Of a stretch of 64,000 bases of DNA, positions 37,420 to 54,502 are shown one piece after another. The stretch is from Xanthobacteraceae bacterium (lineage in GTDB: Bacteria > Pseudomonadota > Alphaproteobacteria > Rhizobiales > Xanthobacteraceae). The stretch spans positions 41,921 to 105,920 of the forward strand of contig JALHLQ010000003.1 in assembly GCA_022844485.1 (NCBI GenBank), in the 5' to 3' direction. The stretch's first letter is position 1. Each line of letters starts with the position of its first letter. Both the position numbers and the translations under genes were made by a program. Below the pieces are notes generated by a model that saw only the letters and a program-made list of their open reading frames with translations, did not search any database and was not told the DNA's origin.

Positions 37420-37522
37420 CGCGCGATCCCGAAAAGTGGATCCCGGTTTTCGGACAAGATCGCGCGAATCATAGCGCGCGATCCCGAAAAGTGGATCCCG
37501 GTTTTCGGACAGGATCGCGTGC
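37420..37522. repeat. REP-like nested palindrome, two tandem copies
   Basis: gcgcgatcccgaaaagtggatcccggttttcggacaagatcgcgc occurs twice (37420-37465 and 37474-37522), between the convergent GNAT gene and folD. Confidence 0.85.
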
Positions 37523-41949: not shown

Positions 41950-42606
41950 CTAGGCGGAGCGCAGCGTCGGTCCAACGCGCAGATACGCCGAGTGTACGTG
42001 CTCATGCATCAGGGCGGCGGCGCTGTCGGCCTCGCCCTGTTCCATCGCGCTCAGAATCGCCGCGTGCTCCTGCCAGACCTTGCGCGACAGATCCGGATAG
42101 CGCAGCACCTCCCGCATGGTCCGCCGCAAGTGATGCCAGTTCAGCCGCATGGTCTCGGCGATCAGGAGATTTCCGGAAAGTTCGTAGACGAACGAGTGGA
42201 ACTCGATGTCGGCCTGCACGAGCGCCCGCCCGTCGCCGGTTTTCAGCACCTCGTTGCCGCGCGCGATCAGGGCGCGGCCTCGCGCCGCGGCCTCGGCCGT
42301 CATGCGCGCAACGGCAAGCCGTACCGCCAAGGGCTCGATCGCGGTGCGGAACTGGTAGATCGCCTCGAAGTGGTTTGGATCGAGCGGGGCGACGGCGACC
42401 CCGCGCCGTCCCACGTCGCGCACGAATCCCTGCGCTTTCAGGACCAGCAGCGCGTTATTGATCGGTTGGCGCGAGACATTCAGGCGCTCCGCGATGTCGG
42501 CCTGCGTCAGCCGCTCCCCGGGTTTCAGCGTGCCGTCGCCGATTGCGTCGAGAATGGTTTCGTAGGCCTGCTCGACCAGCGTTCTTGGATTGACGAGAGA
42601 TTCCAC
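41950..42606 (-). CDS. GntR-family transcriptional regulator (FadR/FCD subfamily)
   Basis: GTG at 42606. wHTH motif GTLKPGERLTQADIAERLNVSRQPINNALLVLKAQGFV followed by an all-helical FCD domain. Divergent from the mutase operon. Confidence 0.85.
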   Translation of the reverse strand: MESLVNPRTLVEQAYETILDAIGDGTLKPGERLTQADIAERLNVSRQPINNALLVLKAQGFVRDVGRRGVAVAPLDPNHFEAIYQFRTAIEPLAVRLAVARMTAEAAARGRALIARGNEVLKTGDGRALVQADIEFHSFVYELSGNLLIAETMRLNWHHLRRTMREVLRYPDLSRKVWQEHAAILSAMEQGEADSAAALMHEHVHSAYLRVGPTLRSA

Positions 42607-42696
42607 GAGTGCCCCTGGTTGCTGGGAAGCGCCCCTTGACCGGGATGCCCCTATAGAATACAGAATACCGTATGTCGAGAGAGAAGGAAAGCGCTA

Positions 42697-43104
42697 ATGG
42701 ATGCCCCAATTCGCGTTCTGCTCGCCAAGGTCGGTCTCGACGGCCATGACCGTGGCGTGAAGGTTGTCGCCCGCGCCCTGCGCGACGCGGGCATGGACGT
42801 GATCTACACGGGGCTCCACCGGACGCCCGACGAGGTCGTCACCGCCGCGATCCAGGAAGACGTCGACGTTCTTGGAATCAGTCTGCTTTCCGGCGTGCAG
42901 ATGACGGTGTTTCCGAAAATCTTCGACAAGCTGAAACGGGAGGGTGCAGACGACATGATCGTCGTCGCGGGCGGCGTCATGCCGGACGAGGACGTGGCCG
43001 CCCTCAAAAAACTCGGCGTCGCCGAAGTCATGCTGCAGGACACGCCGCCGCAGGCGATTGTCGATCGGCTGCGGCAACTCGTGAATGAACGCGGGGCGAG
43101 GTAG
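42697..43104 (+). CDS. hcmB: Acyl-CoA mutase small subunit, B12-binding domain (HcmB-like)
   Basis: ATG at 42697, with an upstream GAAGGAAA. 135 aa. Base-off/His-on motif DGHDRG, and GISLLSG. Confidence 0.8.
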   Translation: MDAPIRVLLAKVGLDGHDRGVKVVARALRDAGMDVIYTGLHRTPDEVVTAAIQEDVDVLGISLLSGVQMTVFPKIFDKLKREGADDMIVVAGGVMPDEDVAALKKLGVAEVMLQDTPPQAIVDRLRQLVNERGAR

Positions 43105-43107
43105 GGC

Positions 43108-44832
43108 GTGCCGCAACTGCCCGCCGACGACAGCGTTGCCGCGGCGATTGCCGGCCTTTTGCGCGCGCGCGGCGTCGAGCGGGTGTTCGCCTTGTGCGGC
43201 GGGCACATCATGCCGCTCTGGATGCACATCGACGCGGCAGGCATTCCGATCGTCGACGTGCGTGACGAGCGCGCGGCCGTGCATATGGCGCAAGCGCACG
43301 CCGACGTCACGGGGAGGCTGGGCGTCGCGCTTGTGACCGCCGGGCCCGGCGTCACCAACGCCATGACCGGCATTGCCAATGCGTTTGTGTCGCGCGCGCC
43401 GGTGCTGATCCTCTCGGGCGCCCCGCCGCGCGCGCAGATTGGCCGCGGTGCGCTGCAGGACCTTGATCATTCGCGACTCGTTGCGTCGATCACGCGCTAC
43501 GCTCGCACGATCGCCGAACCCTCGCTCGCGATTCGTGAGCTCGACGAGGCGATTGCCTGCGCCTTCGGCGACGGCGGCGAACCCGGACCGGTCTTTCTCG
43601 ATTTTCCTGTCGACGTCCTGCGGGCTCCCGCCACGCTTGCGAGCGAGGAGCATCGGCGCGCGAAACCGCGCCCTGCCCTTGCGCCGAGCGAGGCGGAGGT
43701 GGCGCGCGCCGTTGAATTGATCTGGTCGGCCAGGCGGCCTTTGGTGGTTTCCGGACGCGGCGCGCGCGGCGCCGGCCGTGAACTCGCGCAGTTCCTCGAT
43801 CGGACCGGCGCGCTCTACCTCGACACCGGAGAGAGCCGCGGGCTCATCGCCGACGATCACCCCTCCGTCGTCGCTTCGATGCGCGGCGCCGTGATGGGGG
43901 AGGCCGATCTCGTCGTCACCATTGGCCGGCGGCTCGATTTTCAGCTCGCCTACGGCTCGCCGGCCGTGTTCGGCGAGGCGAAATTCGTCCGCATCGCCGA
44001 TGCGCCCTCGGAGCTGCGCGACAACCGCCGCGGCGCGGCGGAAATCTTCGCCTCGCCGGCCCTCGCTCTCTCGGCCATGGTGGCGAACGCCGCGAACCGC
44101 TTGCCGGCGCTCGATCAGGCCTGGATCGACCGGATGCGGACGGGACACAGGGAGCGCGTCACGAAACTGCGGCAATCGATGGCGGCCGCGCCGGCGGACC
44201 GCGACGGGCGCATGCATCCGAACCGGCTGCTCGCCGCCATTCAGGACAAGCTCGGACCTGACGCGATCGTCGTCACCGACGGCGGCGATTTCCTGAGCTT
44301 TGCCCGCGTGGGTTTGTCGGCGCCGACCATGCTCGATCCCGGTCCCTTCGGCTGCATCGGCGTCGGCCTGCCCTATGGCATCGCCGCGAGCATGGCCTGC
44401 CCCGATCGTCCGGTCGTCGTGGCGACCGGGGACGGCGCCTTCGGCTTCAACGCCATCGAGCTGGATACCGCCGTCCGCCACCGCGCGCCGGTCGTCGTCG
44501 TGGTCGCCAACAATGGCGCCTGGCAGATCGAAGTGCACGATCAGACCGTCACCTATGGCAAGGTCGTCGGGACCAGGCTGCAGTTTGCCGATCACGCGGC
44601 CATGGCGCGCGCCTTCGGCATGTATGCGGAGCGAATCGAAAGCCCGGACGATCTGCCCGCCGCGCTCGACCGCGCCTTTGCCAATCGCCCCGCTTTGCTC
44701 GACGTGGTGGTGACGACCGACGCCGTGTCCTCCGACGCCAAGTCGGGCCTGGCCTGGGTTCCTGATTTGCAGCCGCTGGCCGCCTGGGACGAGGCCGAAC
44801 GGCGGTGGCGCGCGGCGGGTGCAAGACAATGA
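43108..44832 (+). CDS. Thiamine-diphosphate enzyme of the oxalyl-CoA decarboxylase/2-hydroxyacyl-CoA lyase type
   Basis: GTG at 43108, 4 nt after the hcmB stop. ThDP motif GDGAFGFNAIELDTAVRHRAPVVVVVANNGA. RGLIADDHPSV and IGRRLDFQLAYG resemble my memory of OXC (KGLLPDNHPQS, IGARLNWLMQHG) more than acetolactate synthase. Confidence 0.8.
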   Translation: MPQLPADDSVAAAIAGLLRARGVERVFALCGGHIMPLWMHIDAAGIPIVDVRDERAAVHMAQAHADVTGRLGVALVTAGPGVTNAMTGIANAFVSRAPVLILSGAPPRAQIGRGALQDLDHSRLVASITRYARTIAEPSLAIRELDEAIACAFGDGGEPGPVFLDFPVDVLRAPATLASEEHRRAKPRPALAPSEAEVARAVELIWSARRPLVVSGRGARGAGRELAQFLDRTGALYLDTGESRGLIADDHPSVVASMRGAVMGEADLVVTIGRRLDFQLAYGSPAVFGEAKFVRIADAPSELRDNRRGAAEIFASPALALSAMVANAANRLPALDQAWIDRMRTGHRERVTKLRQSMAAAPADRDGRMHPNRLLAAIQDKLGPDAIVVTDGGDFLSFARVGLSAPTMLDPGPFGCIGVGLPYGIAASMACPDRPVVVATGDGAFGFNAIELDTAVRHRAPVVVVVANNGAWQIEVHDQTVTYGKVVGTRLQFADHAAMARAFGMYAERIESPDDLPAALDRAFANRPALLDVVVTTDAVSSDAKSGLAWVPDLQPLAAWDEAERRWRAAGARQ

Positions 44833-44845
44833 CGCTCAGGAGAGC

Positions 44846-46279
44846 ATGATGGAATCGTGGTCTTTTCCCCCGGCCTATGATGACGGCTACATGCCTCCGC
44901 ACGACAGCCGCTATTGGTTTCCGGTGCGCGAAACCATGCCGGCCGCGGAGCGCGAACGCGCGATCCTCGAACGGCTCAAGCTCGTTTGCGATTACGCCTA
45001 CAAGCATGCGCCGTTCTACAAGAGAAAATGGGACGAGGCCGGGTTCCATCCGAGCCAACTCAAATCGCTGGAGGATTTCGAGAGCCGCGTGCCGGTGGTG
45101 ACGAAGAAGGACTTGCGGGAATCGCAAACGCGCAATCCGCCTTTCGGCGATTATCTGTGCGTCCCGGAGGCAGAGGTTTTTCACATCCACGGCACCAGCG
45201 GCACGACTGGTCGGCCGACCGCTTTCGCCATCGGCCGCAGTGACTGGAATGCGATCGCCAATGCGCATGCGCGCATCATGTGGGGCATGGGCATGCGCCC
45301 CGGCGACACGATCTGCATCGCCGCGATCTTTTCCCTCTACATGGGAAGCTGGGGCGCTCTCGCCGGCGCCGAGCGGCTGCGCGCAAAAGCCTTTCCCTTC
45401 GGCGCCGGCGCACCCGGCATGTCGGCGCGCTGCGCGCAATGGCTCGACCTGGTCAAGCCGAAGGGCTTTTATGGCACGCCGACCTACGCGCTGCACCTCG
45501 CGCAGGTCGCGCAGGACGAAGGACTCGACCCGCGCAATTTCGGCCTCCAATTCATGTTCTTTTCCGGCGAGCCGGGCGCGTCCATCCCCGCCGTGCGCGA
45601 CAAGATCGAGCATCTCTACGGCGCCAAGGTGTACGATTGCGGCTCGATGGCCGAGATGACCCCATTCATGAACGTCGCGGGGACGCGCGAGACCGACGGC
45701 ATGCTGTGCTGGCAGGACGTGATCTACACGGAAGTCTGTGATCCCAAGACCATGCATCGCGTCGCCTATGGCGAACGCGGGACGCCGGTCTACACTCACC
45801 TCGAGCGCACCTCGCAACCGATGATCCGGCTGCTTTCCGGCGACCTGTCGTTGTGGACCAATGAACCGAACCCTTGCGGGCGCACTTATCCGCGCCTCCC
45901 TCAGGGCATTTTCGGCCGCATCGACGACATGTTCACGATCCGGGGCGAGAACGTCTATCCAAGCGAAATCGACTCGGCGCTGAACGAGATCAAGAACTAC
46001 GGCGGCGAGCACCGCATCGTCATCAGCCGCGAGTCCAGCATGGACGAGCTGCTCTTGCGCGTGGAGGCAGATGCGGACACCTTTGGAAAAGGCGGCGAGG
46101 CAGTGAGCCGCTTCCGCGACGAGGTCGGACGCAAGGTGCAGAAGGTATTGGGCTTGCGGACGCTGGTTGAGGTGGTCGAGCCGAATTCGCTTCCGCGCAC
46201 GGATTTCAAGGCCCGCCGCGTGATCGACGACCGCGCCGTCTTCCGCGACATGCATCGACAGTTGGAGAGCGCGCGGTGA
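44846..46279 (+). CDS. PaaK/F390-synthetase-like acyl-CoA ligase (candidate 2-hydroxyisobutyrate-CoA ligase)
   Basis: ATG at 44846 after AGGAGAG. AMP-binding loop HGTSGTTGRPTAF, with YGTPTY and RIDDMFTIRGENVYPSEI typical of phenylacetate-CoA-ligase-like enzymes. Confidence 0.8.
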   Translation: MMESWSFPPAYDDGYMPPHDSRYWFPVRETMPAAERERAILERLKLVCDYAYKHAPFYKRKWDEAGFHPSQLKSLEDFESRVPVVTKKDLRESQTRNPPFGDYLCVPEAEVFHIHGTSGTTGRPTAFAIGRSDWNAIANAHARIMWGMGMRPGDTICIAAIFSLYMGSWGALAGAERLRAKAFPFGAGAPGMSARCAQWLDLVKPKGFYGTPTYALHLAQVAQDEGLDPRNFGLQFMFFSGEPGASIPAVRDKIEHLYGAKVYDCGSMAEMTPFMNVAGTRETDGMLCWQDVIYTEVCDPKTMHRVAYGERGTPVYTHLERTSQPMIRLLSGDLSLWTNEPNPCGRTYPRLPQGIFGRIDDMFTIRGENVYPSEIDSALNEIKNYGGEHRIVISRESSMDELLLRVEADADTFGKGGEAVSRFRDEVGRKVQKVLGLRTLVEVVEPNSLPRTDFKARRVIDDRAVFRDMHRQLESAR

Positions 46280-46295
46280 CCGAAGGCGCAGAACG

Positions 46296-47303
46296 ATGAA
46301 ACGCTTTGTTCCCTCGCTGGCGCTTGTCGAGCGCGTGCAGAATGGCGAGGCGGCCGCCGTGGCGCGGTTGATCTCGCGCGCGGAAACCGGAACCGACGAG
46401 GCGCGAACGGCCTTGGCGCGCATCTACAAGCTGGCCGGACGCGCGCATGTCATCGGCATCACCGGCGTGCCGGGCTCGGGCAAGTCGACGCTCGTCGGCA
46501 AGCTTGCGCAAAAGATGCGCGCCCGCGCCCACAAGATCGGCATCGTGGCGATCGATCCCTCGAGCCCCTATTCGGGCGGCGCGATTCTGGGCGACCGCAT
46601 CCGCATGACCGAGCTCGCCATGGATCCCGGCATCTATATCCGCTCGATGGCGACGCGCGGCGCGATCGGGGGCATGGCGCGCGCGGCGCTCGACGCCGTC
46701 GACATCCTCGACGTCGCGGGCTTCGACACGATCATTATCGAGACCGTCGGCGTCGGCCAGGACGAGGTCGAGATCGCGCGCGCCTCGCATACGACCGTCG
46801 TGGTGTCGGCGCCCGGCTTGGGCGACGAGATTCAGGCCATCAAGGCCGGCATTCTGGAGATTGCAGACGTTCACGTCGTCTCAAAATGCGACCGCAGCGA
46901 CGCCAACCGCACGCTCACCGATTTGAAGCAGATGCTGATGATCGGCATGATGAATGCGCCCAACCCGGACTGGACCGTGCCGGTGATCGGGACCAGCGCG
47001 GTCAATGACCAGGGGCTTGACGATTTGATTGAGGCGATCGCGAAGCACCGGCAGGTTGCGTTCGAGACCGAGACCGGCCGCGCACGCCGGCTCAGCGTCG
47101 CGCAGTTCCGGTTGCGCAAGACGGCCGAGAACCTGTTGCTGGAGCGCTTTGACCGCGCGGTGGCGAAACACGGGGCTCCGCTCGCAACCAAGCTCCAAAA
47201 CCGCGCCGCGGACCCCTATTCAGCCGCCGCCGAACTCCTCGAGGCCTCGTTTGAAACGGAAGACTGCCATGAACAAAATGCTCGATCCAAAATCGCTCGT
47301 TAG
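46296..47303 (+). CDS. meaB: MeaB/ArgK-family G-protein chaperone for B12 mutases (MeaH-like)
   Basis: ATG at 46296. P-loop GVPGSGKST, with ETVGVGQDE and SKCD. Confidence 0.9.
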   Translation: MKRFVPSLALVERVQNGEAAAVARLISRAETGTDEARTALARIYKLAGRAHVIGITGVPGSGKSTLVGKLAQKMRARAHKIGIVAIDPSSPYSGGAILGDRIRMTELAMDPGIYIRSMATRGAIGGMARAALDAVDILDVAGFDTIIIETVGVGQDEVEIARASHTTVVVSAPGLGDEIQAIKAGILEIADVHVVSKCDRSDANRTLTDLKQMLMIGMMNAPNPDWTVPVIGTSAVNDQGLDDLIEAIAKHRQVAFETETGRARRLSVAQFRLRKTAENLLLERFDRAVAKHGAPLATKLQNRAADPYSAAAELLEASFETEDCHEQNARSKIAR

Positions 47304-48960
47304 CCTGCGGGACGAGGTCGCGGCCTGGGAGGCGAACGAGGTCGCCGCTTTCCTGAAGAAACAGAAGGAGCGCCGCGAGCAATTCTTCACGACCGGCGAC
47401 ATTCCGGTAAAGCGCGTCTACACGGCGGCGGACATCGCCGACACGCCGATCGAGGACATCGGTCTCCCCGGCCGCTATCCCTTCACGCGCGGACCCTATC
47501 CGACGATGTATCGCAGCCGCGCCTGGACCATGCGCCAGATCGCGGGTTTCGGCACCGCCGAGGACACCAATCAGCGCTTCAAGTTTCTGATTGAGCAGGG
47601 TCAGACCGGGCTGTCGACCGACTTCGACATGCCGACGCTGATGGGCTACGATTCCGATCATCCGATGAGCGAGGGCGAGGTCGGGCGCGAGGGTGTCGCG
47701 ATCGACACGCTCGCCGACATGGAGCTTCTCTTCGAGGGCATCGATCTCGAGAGCATTTCCGTGTCGCTGACCATCAATCCGAGCGCCTGGATCCTGCTCG
47801 CGATGTATGTCGCGCTGGCCGAGAAGCGCGGACTCGACCTGAACAAGCTGTCGGGCACCATTCAAGCGGACATTCTCAAGGAATACATGGCGCAGAAGGA
47901 ATATTGTTTTCCGATCGCGCCCTCGGTCCGCATCGTGCGCGATTGCATCGTCTACTGCGCCAAGAACATGAAGCGCTACAACCCGATCAATTTATCGGGG
48001 TACCATATTTCGGAGGCGGGCTCCTCACCCGTTCAGGAAGTCGCGTTCACGCTGGCGAACCTCATCGTCTATGTGGAGGAGGTGACGAAGCTCGGCATCG
48101 ATGTCGACGAATTCGCGCCGCGTCTTGCCTTCTTTTTCGTGTCCCAGGGCGACTTTTTCGAAGAGATCGCGAAATTCCGCGCGGTGCGCCGCGCCTATGC
48201 CAAGATCATGAAGGAGCGTTTCGGCGCCAGGAACCCGGAATCGATGCGGCTGCGGTTCCACTGCCAGACCGCGGCGGCGACGCTGACCGCGCCGCAATAC
48301 CAGATCAACATCGTGCGCACCGCTCTGCAGGCGCTCTCCGCCGTGCTCGGCGGCTGCCAGTCGCTGCACACCAATGGCTACGACGAGGCCTTTGCCATCC
48401 CGACCGAGGACGCCATGCGGATGGCCTTGCGCACGCAGCAGATCATCGCGGATGAGACGAACGTCACGAACGTCGTCGATCCGCTTGGCGGTTCCTACTT
48501 CGTCGAGGCGCTGACGAACGAGTACGAGAAGCGGATATTCGAGATCCTCGACGAGGTGGACGCACGCGGCGGCACGATCAAGCTGATCCAGGAAGGCTGG
48601 TTCCAGAAACAGATCGCCGACTTCGCTTACGAAACGGCGCTGCGCAAGCAGTCGGGCGACAAGCCCGTGATCGGCGTCAACAAATACGTGATGGAGGAGG
48701 AGCATCACGACATCGAGGTGCATCCCTATGACCTGACCACGGCCGAGCGGCAGATCGCGCGCACCCGCCGCGTGCGCGCCGAGCGCAACGAGGCCAAAGT
48801 GCAGGCGCTGCTCGATAAACTCGTCGCCGTGGCGAGCGACGAGTCGCAGAACATCATGCCGGTGACCATCGAGCTGGTGCGCGAGGGCGCGACCATGGGC
48901 GATATCATCGAGAAGCTGAAGGGCCTGTGGGGAACGTACCGGGAGACCCCGGTATTCTGA
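47269..48960 (+). CDS. hcmA: Acyl-CoA mutase large (substrate-binding) subunit with the 2-hydroxyisobutyryl-CoA mutase signature
   Basis: ATG at 47269, overlapping meaB by 35 nt. 563 aa TIM-barrel mutase. The motif [38 protein letters not shown] has Ile where MCM has Tyr and ICM has Phe, and an Asp 27 residues later. Confidence 0.85.
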
Positions 48961-49020
48961 TTCGGCCGCACGGTCTTTGCAGCCGTTGAACGCCGCGCCA
49001 TTCTACGTCAAGAGTTGAGC

Positions 49021-50055
49021 ATGACGCGCCCCTTTCCCCTGATCCTCCCCTTTGGCGGCATGCATCCGAAACTGGCCGGCGCGATAGCGCATGCCGGCGA
49101 GGGCTCCGCCGTTCTCGGGCGGGCGACGCTCGGCTGGAATGCCTGGCTCGGACCGCTCGCGGTCATCCGGGCCGACGGTCACTATGTCGAAATCGGGGAC
49201 GATTTCCATCTTGGGCCGCGCTCGACGGTGCACATCGCCCACGACGTCTATCCGACCATCATAGGCGACCGCGTCAGCGTCGGCGTGAACGCCTGCGTGC
49301 ATGCCTGCACGGTGGGCAGCGATGTCGTCATCGAGGACGGCTCGGTGATCCTCGACGGTTCGATCGTCGAGGACGAGGTCGTGCTCGAGCCGGGAACCTT
49401 CGCCTTTCCGCGCGCCCGATTGCAGCGCGGGCATGTCTATGCCGGCGCGCCGGCCAAGCCGGTGCGCACCGTCGCGCCGGGCGAGATCGCCGAGCGGCGC
49501 GAGGCGATGCGCGAGCGGCACGCAAACAGCCTGCCCGAAATCCAGGCCCGGTCCTTCGGCCCGCGAACGCTCGACGCGACGAGCTTCATCGCCAGCACTG
49601 CGCGCGTGCGCGGGGCGCTCGTCATGGCGCCGATGTCGAGCATCTTCTTCAGCAATGATTTCGACGCCGGAGCAGGCACGATCACGCTGGGCGAGAACAC
49701 GAACGTGCAGGACAACACGATCATCCGCTGCACGGGGGCAGGCGTCACGATCGGGCGCGACACGACGGTCGGCCACAATGTCTTTCTCGAGGATTGCACG
49801 ATCGGCGAGGAATCGCTGATCGGGATCCGCAGCTTCGTCGCCAGAGGGACGGTGGTGGAGGACCATGTGCTGCTTGCAGCCGGCGCGCGAACCGAGCCCG
49901 GGCAGGTGCTCGAGAGCGGCTGGCTCTATGCGAGATCGCCAGCGCGAAAGCTGGCGCCGCTCGACGCCGGCAAGTGCGAGATGATCAAATTCATCATCTG
50001 GACCTATTGCCAATACAATCGCGACTTCAGCGCGGCCGAAAAAGTCAGAGCATGA
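49021..50055 (+). CDS. Tandem double left-handed beta-helix (gamma-carbonic-anhydrase/PaaY-like hexapeptide) protein
   Basis: ATG at 49021. Two gamma-CA-like halves (residues ~20-170 and ~185-330). The usual His metal ligands are degenerate in both halves (GVNACVHAC; QDNTIIRC, GHNVFLEDC). Confidence 0.7.
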   Translation: MTRPFPLILPFGGMHPKLAGAIAHAGEGSAVLGRATLGWNAWLGPLAVIRADGHYVEIGDDFHLGPRSTVHIAHDVYPTIIGDRVSVGVNACVHACTVGSDVVIEDGSVILDGSIVEDEVVLEPGTFAFPRARLQRGHVYAGAPAKPVRTVAPGEIAERREAMRERHANSLPEIQARSFGPRTLDATSFIASTARVRGALVMAPMSSIFFSNDFDAGAGTITLGENTNVQDNTIIRCTGAGVTIGRDTTVGHNVFLEDCTIGEESLIGIRSFVARGTVVEDHVLLAAGARTEPGQVLESGWLYARSPARKLAPLDAGKCEMIKFIIWTYCQYNRDFSAAEKVRA

Positions 50056-50208
50056 TCCCGAAAAGTGGGACCCGGTTTTCGGACAAGATCATGCTCGAAC
50101 AAAGAGCATGATCCCGAAAAGTGGGAGCCGGTTTTCGGACAAGATCATGCTCGAACAAAGAGCATGATCCCGAAAAGTGGGAGCCGGTTTTCGGACAGGA
50201 TCATGCTC
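50048..50208. repeat. REP-like nested palindrome, three tandem copies at 56-bp period
   Basis: gagcatgatcccgaaaagtggga(c/g)ccggttttcggaca(a/g)gatcatgctc at 50048-50096, 50104-50152 and 50160-50208. Lies between the convergent LbH gene and the dodecin gene. Confidence 0.9.
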
Positions 50209-52377: not shown

Positions 52378-53934
52378 CTACTGCGACTCTTGTTCTTTCT
52401 TCTCGGCGCGTTCCATCGACCACTTCACGCGCTGCGCGATGAATTCGGCGAAGGGACGAATGTCAGCTTTGGTGCTCGCACTCTCCAGCCCCTGCATGTA
52501 GCCGGTGCGGTCTTCAACGCGAATGACCGTCCAGGGATAGCCGCCTGAAGCCAGCATCGCATTCATCAAAAACCGCGCCATGCGACCATTCCCGTCTGGA
52601 TAAGGATGGACGTAGGCGAGTAGCCAATGGCCCAGCACGATGCGGACCGCAGGCTCCCTCTCGGCCTCTAGGAGATCAAAGAGCGTATTCATTGCGTCGG
52701 ACACGGTTTCCCAACGAGGCGGAACATGCCGGGAGCCTTGCAAATAGACAGGATGATTGCGGTAACCCGCGAGGGCCGTGGCCTTGATCAGACCCGCTGC
52801 GACACAAGGCTGAAATAGCTCGCGATACCAACCGCGATGGACTGTACGCACAAGCTTGGCCGCATCGGTCCCGGCGATGATTTTTTCGATGGCTATTCTT
52901 ACTTCTTGAAAGGCTTGCCAATATCCACGCGCGGCTAGCGCATCCCGACTCTGGCGATCAGCATCGTGCGTATCCGGGCTCCAGTCACCCGCGCGTACGC
53001 GCTCGATCAGTTCAGGCGCGACCCGATAGCCTTCAATCGAGAGCGAGTGATAGGCATCGTTCTGATAGATGTCGTCGACGAATTCCAGATAGGGCTTGGG
53101 GTTCGGCTTGCCGGGTGGTTTTGGGAAGACCTCCAGGATCGGTTCACGCATCGCGCTCCACAGCGCCCGAAGGCGGCCAACGATTGGCGCGACGCCGGTC
53201 TGAACCGAACCAAAGGTCTGCTCTTTGGCAAAAGGATCGGACTCGCGCACTTCATGTCCGGCCGCCTTCATGGACTTGAGGATTTCGTCGGCGATTTCAG
53301 GTCGTCCGACGCGGCGGAATGCGCCCGCCAGCCGTCCAGCAACGACGGTGTGGCCGCCTTCGAGCAAGGGCGCGAGAACCTCCGAGGCGTCACGAATACG
53401 AGCCAAAACGATTTGTGTCTCAAGCGGACGACGGATCAGAAAATCCTCGGGCACCTTCACGAGCGCCATCGCTGGCGTTAAGAGACGAAGATTGTCCTTC
53501 ACGACCAGATCAGATTCGCGCGGCATAGCCGGTTGTTTCAGGTCGTAGAGCGACGTGCCGAACAGAAGCTTGATGTTGTTGTTGGTGCCCTTAGGCGCGT
53601 AGATCACGACTTGGCTTGGGATGACTGTGCCTTCGGCGTGGAGAAGAAGCGATTGCTCGGGCGAGAGATGCCAGTCGCGACCGAAGCGATTTTCGCAATA
53701 GCGCGCGCAGAACTCCCAGAATGAGGCAGACCAAGGCGTGGTATCGCCCGAAGTGGAACGGGGGCTGGTCGAGATCAGCCAGCCTTTGATCACCTCGCGC
53801 AAGAAGCCTTGAGCGAGCAGCCTCTCACGATCAGTGCGGCTAAGTTCATCCGACTGAAGGACGCGACGTCCGTCCGCCTGCAATTGCTTGAGCTTGTCCA
53901 GCGAGGTCGCAAGCTTCTCATGGATGCTAGGCAA
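52378..53934 (-). CDS. Fic-family protein (class II, intramolecular inhibitory motif)
   Basis: Fic active site HPYPDGNGRMAR. An upstream SLSIEG matches the (S/T)xxxE(G/N) inhibitory helix. Proposed TTG start at 53934 with GGGAG 8 nt upstream. The annotated ORF extension to 54012 only translates AT-rich repeats. Confidence 0.8.
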   Translation of the reverse strand: MPSIHEKLATSLDKLKQLQADGRRVLQSDELSRTDRERLLAQGFLREVIKGWLISTSPRSTSGDTTPWSASFWEFCARYCENRFGRDWHLSPEQSLLLHAEGTVIPSQVVIYAPKGTNNNIKLLFGTSLYDLKQPAMPRESDLVVKDNLRLLTPAMALVKVPEDFLIRRPLETQIVLARIRDASEVLAPLLEGGHTVVAGRLAGAFRRVGRPEIADEILKSMKAAGHEVRESDPFAKEQTFGSVQTGVAPIVGRLRALWSAMREPILEVFPKPPGKPNPKPYLEFVDDIYQNDAYHSLSIEGYRVAPELIERVRAGDWSPDTHDADRQSRDALAARGYWQAFQEVRIAIEKIIAGTDAAKLVRTVHRGWYRELFQPCVAAGLIKATALAGYRNHPVYLQGSRHVPPRWETVSDAMNTLFDLLEAEREPAVRIVLGHWLLAYVHPYPDGNGRMARFLMNAMLASGGYPWTVIRVEDRTGYMQGLESASTKADIRPFAEFIAQRVKWSMERAEKKEQESQ

Positions 53935-53966
53935 CGGGTGGCTCCCTGTGCGAACACAAGTATATG

Positions 53967-54038
53967 ATGCTGTATTATTACAAGTAAATAATGCTGTATA
54001 ATTACAAGTCAATTATGTTGCATAATTACAAGTATTTG
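53967..54038. repeat. Three AT-rich 24-bp tandem direct repeats (iteron-like)
   Basis: atgctgtattattacaagtaaata / atgctgtataattacaagtcaatt / atgttgcataattacaagtatttg. R1 vs R2 is 21/24 and R2 vs R3 is 18/24. A partial fourth core, acacaagta, lies at about 53955. Confidence 0.9.
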
Positions 54039-54140
54039 ACGCGACATGCAACCGACCGAGATTCGATGCCTCGGCGCGAGTTCGATAGCGAACGCCGCGG
54101 CCGGCCGAGCTCTATCCGAGCTCTAATCCTGGCCTGCCCA

Positions 54141-54380
54141 AAATATCCCTTCCACGACCGCGATATCTTGGTCACCGCCTGCGGCCGCATCTGCATGCAC
54201 AAGAAGAAAATCAACATCTCGACCGTGCTCGCCGGCCAGAAGCTCGGCATCAAGGAAGTCGACGACGGCATTTGGCTCGTCAGCTTCATGCGCTACGATC
54301 TCGGCTACATCGATCTGGAGCAGAGAACCTTGCAGACCATCGACAATCCGTTCGGCACGAGATTGTCACCCATGTCTTAG
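54141..54380 (+). pseudogene. 3' remnant of an IS481-like/rve-integrase transposase gene
   Basis: KYPFHDRDILVTACGRICMHKKKINISTVLAGQKLGIKEVDDGIWLVSFMRYDLGYIDLEQRTLQTIDNPFGTRLSPMS is the conserved C-terminal tail of a transposase family common in Rhizobiales. No DDE core, start codon or inverted repeats are present. The left boundary is approximate. Confidence 0.6.
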
Positions 54381-54426
54381 GTACAATCTGTCACCCATGT
54401 CTCCGGGTCGGACACACGAGCCGCCT

Positions 54427-54502
54427 GGTGCCGCAAGAGGGATTCGAACCCCCGACCCCATCATTACGAATGATGTGCTCTACCAGCTGAGCTATTGCGG
54501 CT
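54427..54502 (-). tRNA. tRNA-Thr (anticodon CGT)
   Basis: The reverse complement folds by hand into a 76-nt cloverleaf: acceptor GCCGCAA/TTGCGGC, anticodon loop TTCGTAA, T-loop TTCGAAT, and an encoded CCA. Confidence 0.9.

Follow-up and report, generated by a model that had tools for sequence, protein, structure and literature searches.

A probable GntR-controlled operon of a Xanthobacteraceae bacterium that combines a 2-hydroxyisobutyryl-CoA mutase, its CoA ligase and a predicted 2-hydroxyacyl-CoA lyase

Two routes lead away from 2-hydroxyisobutyryl-CoA (2-HIB-CoA), isomerisation by a B12-dependent mutase and cleavage by a ThDP-dependent lyase, and the literature presents them as alternatives (PMC7176365), as the preliminary description of this DNA had stated. 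The region 41950-50055 of the 64,000-nucleotide stretch analysed here (the window), which derives from an uncultured Xanthobacteraceae soil bacterium, carries genes for both. What do two such enzymes do side by side, and in which direction does the lyase operate?

The layout described earlier, a divergent regulator followed by a packed plus-strand operon, was recovered with all seven genes in place. A GntR/FCD-family transcriptional regulator on the minus strand (41950..42606; Pfam GntR 49 bits and FCD 103 bits) diverges from six plus-strand genes, hcmB, the ThDP enzyme gene, hcl, meaH, hcmA and a gene for a double left-handed beta-helix (LbH) protein, which are spaced by gaps of 3-60 nt and a single 35-nt overlap. 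The lyase gene starts with GTG, preceded by GAGG, 3 nt after hcmB; hcl follows after 13 nt with AGGAGA 5' of its start, meaH after a further 16 nt, meaH overlaps hcmA by the 35 nt, and 60 nt separate hcmA from the LbH gene (54 nt if the latter starts at TTG). Ribosome-binding sites are found at every junction with tight spacing, GC3 is uniform over the six genes (0.80-0.84), and a scan for plus-strand terminator-like sites within the operon found none; the six genes are probably co-transcribed. At the 3' end lies a hairpin-forming 56-bp tandem repeat (50047..50208, plus strand, 2.9 copies; TRF period 56, 98% matches) with an RNA fold of -97.5 kcal/mol (z = -12.7) and more copies at 1746, 37425 and 37480 of the window, which might serve as a terminator or mRNA stabiliser.

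The 90-nt gap between gntR and hcmB harbours a candidate operator, GAATACAGAATACCGTATGTC (42656..42676), with the palindromic core ATACCGTAT. Of 77 loci, 22 carry the core ATAC[CGT]GTAT no more than 150 nt before hcmB (9/26 with a lyase gene and 13/51 without), while we estimate the chance expectation to be ≈0.002 per locus. A homologue of the regulator is divergent and upstream of hcmB in most of 80 surveyed hcm loci and also in Methylibium petroleiphilum PM1, and this is the usual arrangement for hcl clusters (PMC7176365). The regulator presumably binds the candidate operator.

Sequence comparison identifies the mutase, the ligase and the chaperone as close orthologues of Aquincola HcmAB and HCL, which have been crystallised. 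The small subunit gene hcmB (42697..43104, plus strand) encodes a Pfam B12-binding domain (TIGR00640 150 bits, cut-off 57) with the DGHDRG motif at residues 15-20, and its top PDB match is the HcmB small subunit 4r3u_C (223 bits). The substrate-binding large subunit, encoded by hcmA (47269..48960, plus strand), matches 4r3u_A with 1062 bits over residues 5-563 and methylmalonyl-CoA mutase with just 455 bits. Its Ile91 (in RQIAGF) and Asp118 (in STDFDM) align with Ile90/Asp117 of Aquincola tertiaricarbonis HcmA (4r3u), and the earlier assignment to the HcmAB type by an Ile/Asp pair stands. The hcl product (44846..46279, plus strand; PaaK fold) aligns end to end with the Aquincola 2-hydroxyisobutyryl-CoA synthetase 6hdw (879 bits, vs 222 bits for PaaK), and the ATG at 44846 agrees with the HCL N-terminus, in line with the proposed dedicated ligase for 2-hydroxyisobutyrate. 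Identification as PaaK itself was rejected, since the PaaK equivalog, for which the cut-off is 646 bits, gave a score of 258. The meaH gene (46296..47303, plus strand) encodes a MeaB-family G-protein chaperone of the mutase (Pfam MeaB 295 bits; TIGR00750 311 bits, cut-off 241), and its overlap with the hcmA start recurs in other loci, e.g. ≈30 nt by tblastn coordinates in L004 and L005.

The ThDP enzyme (43108..44832, plus strand) is predicted to be a three-domain short-chain 2-hydroxyacyl-CoA lyase of the type of AcHACL from Actinomycetospora chiangmaiensis. It scores 803 bits with the NCBIfam equivalog NF058623 (cut-off 600) and falls under the respective cut-offs of the ALS, OXC and Xsc models, which agrees with its earlier placement on the HACL/OXC side and not among acetolactate synthases. 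Its structure matches are AcHACL (7pt1) with 582 bits, the next HACL/OXC with 218 and ALS with ≈155. Over 572 positions it is 51% identical to AcHACL, and E54, L116, Q117, I474 and E475 correspond to E65, L127, Q128, I492 and E493, the active-site residues with roles taken from PMC8760513; the C-terminal lid and all size-limiting residues are conserved as well. On these sequence features it qualifies as a full member of the Actinomycetospora-type family. AcHACL cleaves 2-HIB-CoA with a Km of 120 μM and a kcat of 1.3 per s, and its rates with the C5 homologue are comparable. In both organisms HCL adjoins the lyase; Actinomycetospora lacks a 2-HIB-CoA mutase and pairs its lyase with the diol-oxidising mpdB/mpdC, whereas the window lyase is part of the operon that encodes HcmAB and MeaH, and no mpd genes lie in its vicinity.

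Such a pairing had been thought unusual. Among the 80 closest hcmA loci, 27 have an AcHACL-type lyase gene within 10 kb of hcmA, including that of PM1, the model MTBE degrader, and both routes are also present and co-induced in Mycolicibacterium sp. ELW1; co-occurrence as such is therefore not exceptional. What is rare is the exact order with the lyase gene between hcmB and hcl (four instances found). Elsewhere the lyase gene may lie inside, downstream of or divergently upstream of the hcm genes, depending on the lineage, and the association, with three or more arrangements in all, recurs in Alpha-, Beta- and Gammaproteobacteria, Myxococcota and Eremiobacterota. All 27 lyase-bearing loci have hcl, which in the window sits between the genes for the two exits; acid activation thus belongs to the pathway.

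PM1 (plasmid RPME01) and A. tertiaricarbonis L108 have the same regulator and the same genes in the same core order as the window (gntR / hcmB-hcl-meaH-hcmA), and the identities to PM1 are 82% for HcmA, 81% for HcmB, 75% for HCL and 70% for MeaH. Further along the same gene string PM1, too, encodes a lyase of the AcHACL type (63% identical) and a double-LbH protein, but there the lyase gene is 3' of hcmA, beyond a hypothetical gene and an adenosyltransferase gene, and overlaps the LbH gene. The window operon has neither an adenosyltransferase nor a 3-hydroxybutyryl-CoA dehydrogenase gene. In the searchable literature we found no mention of the PM1 lyase. The actinobacterium ELW1 encodes HcmB, HCL, MeaB, HcmA and a TPP lyase in a single inducible cluster (ibc cluster 2, plasmid pELW1-1); the gene for this lyase (48% identical to the window enzyme) sits at the cluster edge, ≈4.5 kb downstream of hcmA and after ilvC and a dehydrogenase gene; the cluster has no LbH gene. 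On isobutylene the lyase is induced together with the mutase (log2FC 5.3 for RNA and 5.0 for protein), and a 2026 paper describes it as a possible minor route.

The double-LbH protein (49021..50055, plus strand, or from TTG at 49015; the NCBI call is the ATG at 49021, 344 aa) consists of two gamma-CA/YrdA/PaaY-like domains in tandem, both halves matching gamma-CA-like structures. It is below the cut-offs of the gamma-CA, PaaY and CaiE equivalogs. In 45 homologues H73 and H96 of the N half and H254 of the C half are invariant and the remaining three canonical ligand positions are variable, which makes the protein a conserved accessory with one predicted composite metal site; a function as PaaY-like hydrolase is no more than a conjecture. 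The gene is present both in hcm operons that have a lyase gene and in those that lack one, and also outside hcm operons, so a formyl-CoA-specific rescue role is unsupported, and the earlier suggestion of a CoA-rescuing PaaY-like thioesterase finds no support.

Outside hcm loci the lyase clade of the window enzyme usually belongs to a module for uptake, ligation and cleavage (GntR / TRAP transporter - ACS-type ligase - AEC - lyase), seen in at least 53 of 80 metagenome loci and in Bradyrhizobium, Azoarcus and Cupriavidus. The module lyases of Bradyrhizobium and soil metagenomes are the closest relatives outside the small window clade (69-76% identity, same active-site residues). Their ligase is from another family (≈520 aa, AMP-binding and AMP-binding_C), they have their own transporter and no mutase, and none of 80 sampled loci has hcm genes beside the lyase. 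This context shows a catabolic logic; we found no characterisation of the proteobacterial module in the literature.

Taken together, we consider it probable, with some reservation, that the window encodes a GntR-controlled catabolic operon in which one ligase serves two catabolic exits, the carbon-conserving mutase and a B12-independent lyase side route; the comparisons above show the gene identities, the conserved active site, the operon layout and the recurrence of the pairing, and we infer from them which substrates are used, which way the lyase runs and how the two exits share the work. HCL would convert 2-hydroxyisobutyrate, and C5 tertiary 2-hydroxy acids close to it, to CoA thioesters. 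HcmAB, loaded and protected by MeaH, would isomerise 2-HIB-CoA to (S)-3-hydroxybutyryl-CoA as the main route, and the lyase would yield acetone plus formyl-CoA from 2-HIB-CoA and butanone plus formyl-CoA from the C5 homologue. Against this reading, the lyase gene is absent from two thirds of the related hcm operons, and no acetone- or formate-utilising gene was found linked in the window. Moreover, ELW1 depends on cobalt on isobutylene and all intermediates upstream of 3-hydroxybutyrate although its lyase is induced, so ELW1 does not grow by the lyase route alone and the contribution of the lyase may be small.

A strict split of substrates is unlikely, although it is the best of the alternatives: the mutase would act on 2-HIB-CoA only and the lyase on another HCL-made thioester, e.g. 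2-hydroxy-2-methylbutyryl-CoA or an analogous unsaturated C5 thioester that originates from tert-amyl or isoprenoid compounds, without competition in vivo. In its favour, AcHACL cleaves the C5 homologue about as fast as the C4 thioester but does not cleave C6, the residues and lid that impose this size limit are retained here, and C5 acids derived from isoprene or isoamylene have been suggested to be what the lyase acts on in nature; however, nothing in the sequence distinguishes a C4 from a C5 preference, and Actinomycetospora degrades 2-hydroxyisobutyrate mainly through this enzyme family.

Formyl-CoA carboligation with ketones is poor both thermodynamically and kinetically, which counts against a condensing role, in which formyl-CoA and acetone would give 2-HIB-CoA and, by HcmAB, 3-hydroxybutyryl-CoA. 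The lyase reaction is described as reversible, so direction cannot be read from sequence, and acetone is called the native substrate of AcHACL in the synthase direction (PMC8760513); in addition, both the window and PM1 keep lyase and mutase in one same-strand gene string. Nor is the idea new, since a ThDP enzyme acting on 2-HIB-CoA together with a B12-dependent mutase has been proposed, in the condensing direction, for acetone activation in the anaerobic sulfate reducers Desulfococcus biacutus and Desulfosarcina cetonica. Their ThDP enzyme is, however, unrelated (685 aa, 22% identical to AcHACL), their mutase is RcmAB-like, and they have no HCL, because acid activation is not part of that pathway (PMC7176365). 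Neither the window flanks nor the gene clusters tied to the lyase contained a gene for formyl-CoA transferase, acylating formaldehyde dehydrogenase, formate dehydrogenase or acetone carboxylase. The constancy of hcl and the lack of a linked formyl-CoA-forming gene favour cleavage, as does the dominant import-ligase-lyase context of the clade, and for a related HACL the Km of acetone exceeds 1 M (PMC7176365). We therefore regard a C1+C3 assimilation role as unsupported and very improbable; if true, it would be an ATP-free assimilation in an aerobe, analogous to the sulfate-reducer proposal.

Least probable is that the lyase gene is a passenger captured by rearrangement from a neighbouring TRAP/ACS-ligase module and adds nothing important, since, in spite of its grouping beside the Bradyrhizobium/Roseicella clade of that module and its variable position, the association recurs across the lineages above, the gene is intact with complete catalytic residues, closely fitted gaps and its own ribosome-binding site, and its ELW1 counterpart is co-induced.

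We thus prefer the reading with one ligase and two exits, in which the lyase would be a side route for when the mutase cannot accept, or keep pace with, its substrate. Only the gene order is rare; the pairing itself, common as it is in related genomes, is almost never discussed.

We report that positions 41950-50055 of the window hold a regulator gene, gntR (minus strand), and a plus-strand operon in the order hcmB, lyase gene, hcl, meaH, hcmA and a double-LbH gene, which are exactly the genes listed in the preliminary description. In the Pfam/NCBIfam searches the regulator has GntR and FCD domains, the hcmB product has a B12-binding domain (TIGR00640, 150 bits), the ThDP enzyme (the lyase; 43108-44832, plus strand) has three domains, the hcl product is an adenylating ligase with the PaaK fold, the meaH product is a MeaB-family GTPase (TIGR00750, 311 bits vs. 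a cut-off of 241), hcmA encodes a large subunit of the methylmalonyl-CoA-mutase family (687 bits), and the last gene encodes a protein with two hexapeptide-repeat (LbH) domains. As read from the sequence, the junctions measure 3, 13, 16 and 60 nt while meaH and hcmA overlap by 35 nt; every start has a purine-rich ribosome-binding site upstream, GC3 is even over the genes (0.80-0.84), and a scan for plus-strand terminator-like sites inside the block gave none.

The large subunit HcmA matched that of the Aquincola 2-hydroxyisobutyryl-CoA (2-HIB-CoA) mutase (4r3u_A) with 1062 bits vs. 455 for methylmalonyl-CoA mutase, and HcmB matched the small subunit (4r3u_C) with 223 bits; for both subunits the 4r3u matches lie far above those to methylmalonyl-CoA and isobutyryl-CoA mutases, and on these matches the mutase genes had been named correctly. 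HcmA has Ile91 in RQIAGF and Asp118 in STDFDM, corresponding to Aquincola Ile90 and Asp117, while the aligned motifs in human MCM are RQYAGF and SVAFDL, i.e. with Tyr and Ala in place of Ile and Asp. The Ile90/Asp117 pair in the HcmA substrate pocket is what we take to be the mark of a 2-HIB-CoA mutase, and its weight is said to go back to Yaneva 2012 and Kurteva-Yaneva 2015. HcmB carries the B12-binding DxHxxG motif as DGHDRG, and the MeaB-type chaperone is encoded in the same operon. The ligase matched Aquincola HCL (6hdw), the 2-HIBA-CoA ligase, end to end (residues 2-476) with 879 bits vs. 222 for PaaK; it shares the fold of PaaK phenylacetate-CoA ligase and falls outside that family, scoring 258 bits against the equivalog model with a cut-off of 646.

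For the ThDP enzyme, the equivalog model for the type of 2-hydroxyacyl-CoA lyase represented by AcHACL from Actinomycetospora chiangmaiensis (NF058623) gave 803 bits with a cut-off of 600, and the next-best NCBIfam model reached 377 bits, under its own cut-off of 587. The models for acetolactate synthase, oxalyl-CoA decarboxylase (OXC) and sulfoacetaldehyde acetyltransferase (Xsc) all stayed far under their cut-offs, and the earlier reading of a HACL-type enzyme rather than an acetolactate synthase thus stands. Among solved structures AcHACL (7pt1) scored 582 bits, other HACL/OXC enzymes at most 218 and acetolactate synthases approximately 155, with 51% identity to AcHACL over 572 positions. 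Residues E54, Q117, E475, L116 and I474 align with AcHACL Glu65, Gln128, Glu493, Leu127 and Ile492, of which Glu65 activates the cofactor, Glu493 is catalytic and located on a short helix, Leu127 and Ile492 limit substrate size, and Gln128 is also defining (Zahn et al., PMC8760513). AcHACL is further distinguished by a C-terminal lid (residues 556-590) that OXC and other HACLs do not have (PMC8760513); the window lyase (574 residues) keeps it, the alignment extending to residue 571 and including a conserved segment, ...GLAWVPDLQPLAAWDEAERRWR.... On these sequence features the enzyme is AcHACL-type and is predicted to split 2-HIB-CoA into acetone plus formyl-CoA.

To place this gene combination, we took the 80 loci whose HcmA is most similar to that of the window (79-87% identity; a single genome for each GTDB species), together with 10 kb of sequence to either side, and mapped the seven window proteins onto them. 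What these loci conserve is gntR (minus strand) followed by hcmB-hcl-meaH-hcmA, and about half of the 80 have the double-LbH gene next. None of 17 proteins encoded in the window flanks has a syntenic match near any of these loci (L004-L083), which argues that the chromosomal surroundings of the hcm block change from lineage to lineage and that it behaves as a movable cassette would; in the window the flanks are of a housekeeping nature, with TerB, SDR, GATase, RidA, YggT and FolD upstream and dodecin, class II aldolase, DUF892, HemY, HemD, HemC and TsaD downstream. TypA shares no more than 90% identity with proteins of Xanthobacteraceae metagenome-assembled genomes, which makes the source an uncultured member of this family. 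An AcHACL-type lyase, 56-73% identical to that of the window, is encoded within the fetched flanks in 27/80. In many Burkholderiales (Methylibium, Piscinibacter, Rubrivivax, Ottowia) its gene is downstream of hcmA and immediately precedes the LbH gene; in Methylobacterium it is divergent and upstream of the hcm genes; and Beijerinckiaceae, Rhodopseudomonas, Panacagrimonas, one genome of Myxococcales and one of Eremiobacterota have it at other nearby positions. The order of the window, in which the lyase gene separates hcmB from hcl, was otherwise seen only in one surveyed locus (L006) and on two short metagenome contigs, and these contigs carry the closest relatives of the window lyase (88% and 78% identity). 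The preliminary description had presented the combination as unusual; this applies to the gene order alone, and not to the pairing as such.

A search for genes associated with the lyase covered 1179 ORFs from the 80 loci, obtained with a crude GC3-filter ORF caller that missed genes (20 of the 27 lyases were recovered), and tied just two genes to the lyase, one for an MFS transporter (8 loci) and one, in 5 loci that all resemble that of Methylibium petroleiphilum PM1, for a 3-hydroxybutyryl-CoA dehydrogenase. The MFS transporter (approximately 435 aa) is encoded in 8/27 lyase-bearing vs. 0/53 lyase-free hcm loci (Fisher p = 8e-5), namely L047, L055, L068, L072, L073, L074, L075 and L078; MFS transporter genes adjoin the lyase gene also in Mycolicibacterium sp. 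ELW1, Cupriavidus and Bradyrhizobium.

Outside hcm operons the lyase has another setting. Of the 80 lyases from JGI metagenomes that are most closely related to it (69-76% identity), none is encoded beside hcm genes, and at least 53 of their loci have a module in which a minus-strand gntR is followed by DctP-DctQM (a TRAP transporter), an ACS-type ligase of approximately 520 aa, an AEC transporter and the lyase, with neither mutase nor HCL. The same module is present in Bradyrhizobium (L001-L003), with variants on plasmids of Azoarcus KH32C (L085) and Cupriavidus basilensis (L090); in that of Azoarcus, genes for PQQ dehydrogenase and aldehyde dehydrogenase are added. This module, widespread in soil Proteobacteria, has the look of an undescribed pathway in which a 2-hydroxy acid would be imported and passed to the lyase. 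A neighbour-joining tree gives a Bradyrhizobium/Roseicella group as the sister of the window clade and splits the lyases associated with hcm genes over more than one clade, so the lyase has entered hcm operons more than once.

With respect to published systems, lyase-HCL and mutase-HCL clusters have been presented as alternatives, with Actinomycetospora lacking the mutase and no lyase mentioned in proteobacterial hcm clusters (Rohwerder et al. 2020, PMC7176365). A ThDP enzyme and a 2-HIB-CoA mutase do occur together in acetone degradation by Desulfococcus biacutus (PMC7176365; also PMC7888143), whose ThDP enzyme is unrelated (22% identity) and which has no HCL because its pathway starts from acetone (PMC7176365). 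The window operon, with its HCL, AcHACL-type lyase and HcmAB-type mutase, is therefore not of this type, which combines a 685-aa ThDP enzyme unrelated to AcHACL with an RcmAB-like mutase, without HCL (PMC7176365). A parallel in a well-known strain is on plasmid RPME01 of the MTBE degrader PM1 (L084, 487205-497737), where gntR is followed by hcmB, hcl, meaB, hcmA, a hypothetical gene, an adenosyltransferase gene, and genes for a TPP-binding protein, a gamma-CA-family protein, a second adenosyltransferase and 3-hydroxybutyryl-CoA dehydrogenase; the TPP-binding protein is an AcHACL-type lyase, 63% identical to that of the window. Both adenosyltransferases are PduO-type, and the lyase and double-LbH genes share 4 nt at the lyase stop. 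For ELW1, a 2026 paper reports that the mutase cluster has a TPP lyase at its edge and lists it as a possible minor route. Its supplementary table gives log2FC values on isobutylene of 5.26 (RNA) and 5.04 (protein) for the lyase; the genes of mutase, ligase and MeaB have values of 6.4-8.9 (RNA) and 5.5-6.4 (protein). ELW1 depends on cobalt for growth on all intermediates upstream of 3-hydroxybutyrate, which indicates that the lyase alone does not substitute for the mutase in this strain. Apart from the ELW1 remark, the searched literature contained no comment on the PM1 lyase, on lyase-mutase co-occurrence or on its frequency.

Each half of the LbH protein (49021-50055) resembles gamma-carbonic-anhydrase/YrdA-type proteins, and it belongs to an uncharacterised family of tandem LbH proteins of approximately 345 aa. 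Assignment as gamma-CA, PaaY or CaiE failed (124 vs. a cut-off of 250, 85 vs. 320 and 70 vs. 305, respectively). In 45 homologues, i.e. the window protein and 44 from L004-L084 (40-83% identical), the N half keeps canonical His ligands 1 and 3 without exception (H73, H96), and the C half does so only for His ligand 2 (H254); the other three canonical ligand positions vary freely, and neither domain retains three His. In gamma-CA trimers the metal is held by two His of one subunit and one of its neighbour. Given this geometry, the complementary retention of H73/H96 and H254 fits one composite metal site at the interface of the N and C domains, and this conservation pattern suggests a real metalloenzyme and not a decayed duplicate. 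The LbH gene follows hcmA in 26/53 lyase-free and 17/27 lyase-bearing hcm loci, and homologues with 57-59% identity are found also in unrelated contexts outside hcm, so that a lyase-specific role in hydrolysing formyl-CoA, as a formyl-CoA thioesterase, is unsupported. As a guess, the protein might be a general PaaY-like thioesterase.

Positions 42656-42676, in the 90-nt gap between gntR and hcmB, read GAATACAGAATACCGTATGTC. The palindrome at its core, ATAC[CGT]GTAT, is present upstream of hcmB in 22/77 loci, lyase-bearing and lyase-free alike, and GAATACAGAATACCGTATGTC is a plausible candidate operator. The scan gave no sigma-70-like promoter in this gap, TTGACC...TAGAAT being present with a spacer of 12 nt, and near the operon neither a B12 riboswitch nor any further Rfam family was predicted. 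At the other end, 2.9 tandem copies of a 56-bp hairpin repeat, AGAGCATGATCCCGAAAAGTGGGAGCCGGTTTTCGGACAAGATCATGCTCGAACAA, span 50047-50208, where they take in the LbH stop codon (50055) and extend downstream of it; the region has a predicted fold of -97.5 kcal/mol (z = -12.7) in which each unit forms a long hairpin. The repeat recurs at two other intergenic sites in the window, with copies at 1746-1775, 37425-37454 and 37480-37509, and all copies are on the plus strand. We regard it as a probable REP-like element whose copies here may terminate the operon transcript or make it more stable. Further downstream, a long Fic-domain ORF (52378-54012, minus strand) with atypical codon-position GC lies within the lowest-GC part of the window (0.593 at 52-54 kb) and adjoins a tRNA gene (54429-54501, minus strand); this region (52378-54501) may be a small acquired islet.

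Taken as a whole, the operon is best explained as catabolic, with one activation step and two exits: HCL would activate the acid once, and mutase and lyase would be alternative exits for the thioester. The cleavage direction is favoured because hcl is present in 27/27 lyase-bearing hcm loci and lies inside the window operon, because no formyl-CoA-forming or acetone-handling gene was found by Pfam scans in 20 flanking ORFs or was tied to the lyase (1179 ORFs, 80 loci), because the usual context of the lyase clade is transporter, ligase and lyase, and because the characterised family member, AcHACL, is degradative, with a Km of 120 uM for 2-HIB-CoA. The lyase might instead condense formyl-CoA with acetone (or butanone) in vivo in aerobic Proteobacteria, giving 2-HIB-CoA and, through HcmAB, 3-hydroxybutyryl-CoA, since its reaction is described as reversible (PMC8760513); we consider this very improbable, as nothing in the present data favours it. 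The C1+C3 assimilation role raised in the preliminary description is thus left without support, given the presence of hcl in every lyase-bearing hcm locus and the absence of a linked formyl-CoA source. If true, about one third of hcm operons would encode a natural ATP-free route by which C1+C3 units are assimilated into PHB and central metabolism. For the catabolic operon, both exits may possibly be kept to give an overflow or a bypass whenever the B12 enzyme runs short of cofactor or is inactivated, or for a wider substrate range; AcHACL takes the C5 homologue just as well as it takes 2-HIB-CoA. Another possible reason is protection against CoA trapping when the fragile radical enzyme stalls.

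The advance is incremental, since all parts belong to known families and the co-occurrence has been noted in one 2026 paper. In the published picture the two bacterial fates of 2-HIB-CoA are alternatives of different organisms, yet roughly one in three of the closest HcmA-type operons has the lyase as well. The survey also reveals many proteobacterial homologues of an enzyme sought for converting C1 compounds by way of formyl-CoA and for making methacrylate precursors. Finally, the pairing is widespread and almost undiscussed, and with the lyase encoded in the long-studied PM1 and in several culturable strains, its purpose is directly testable.
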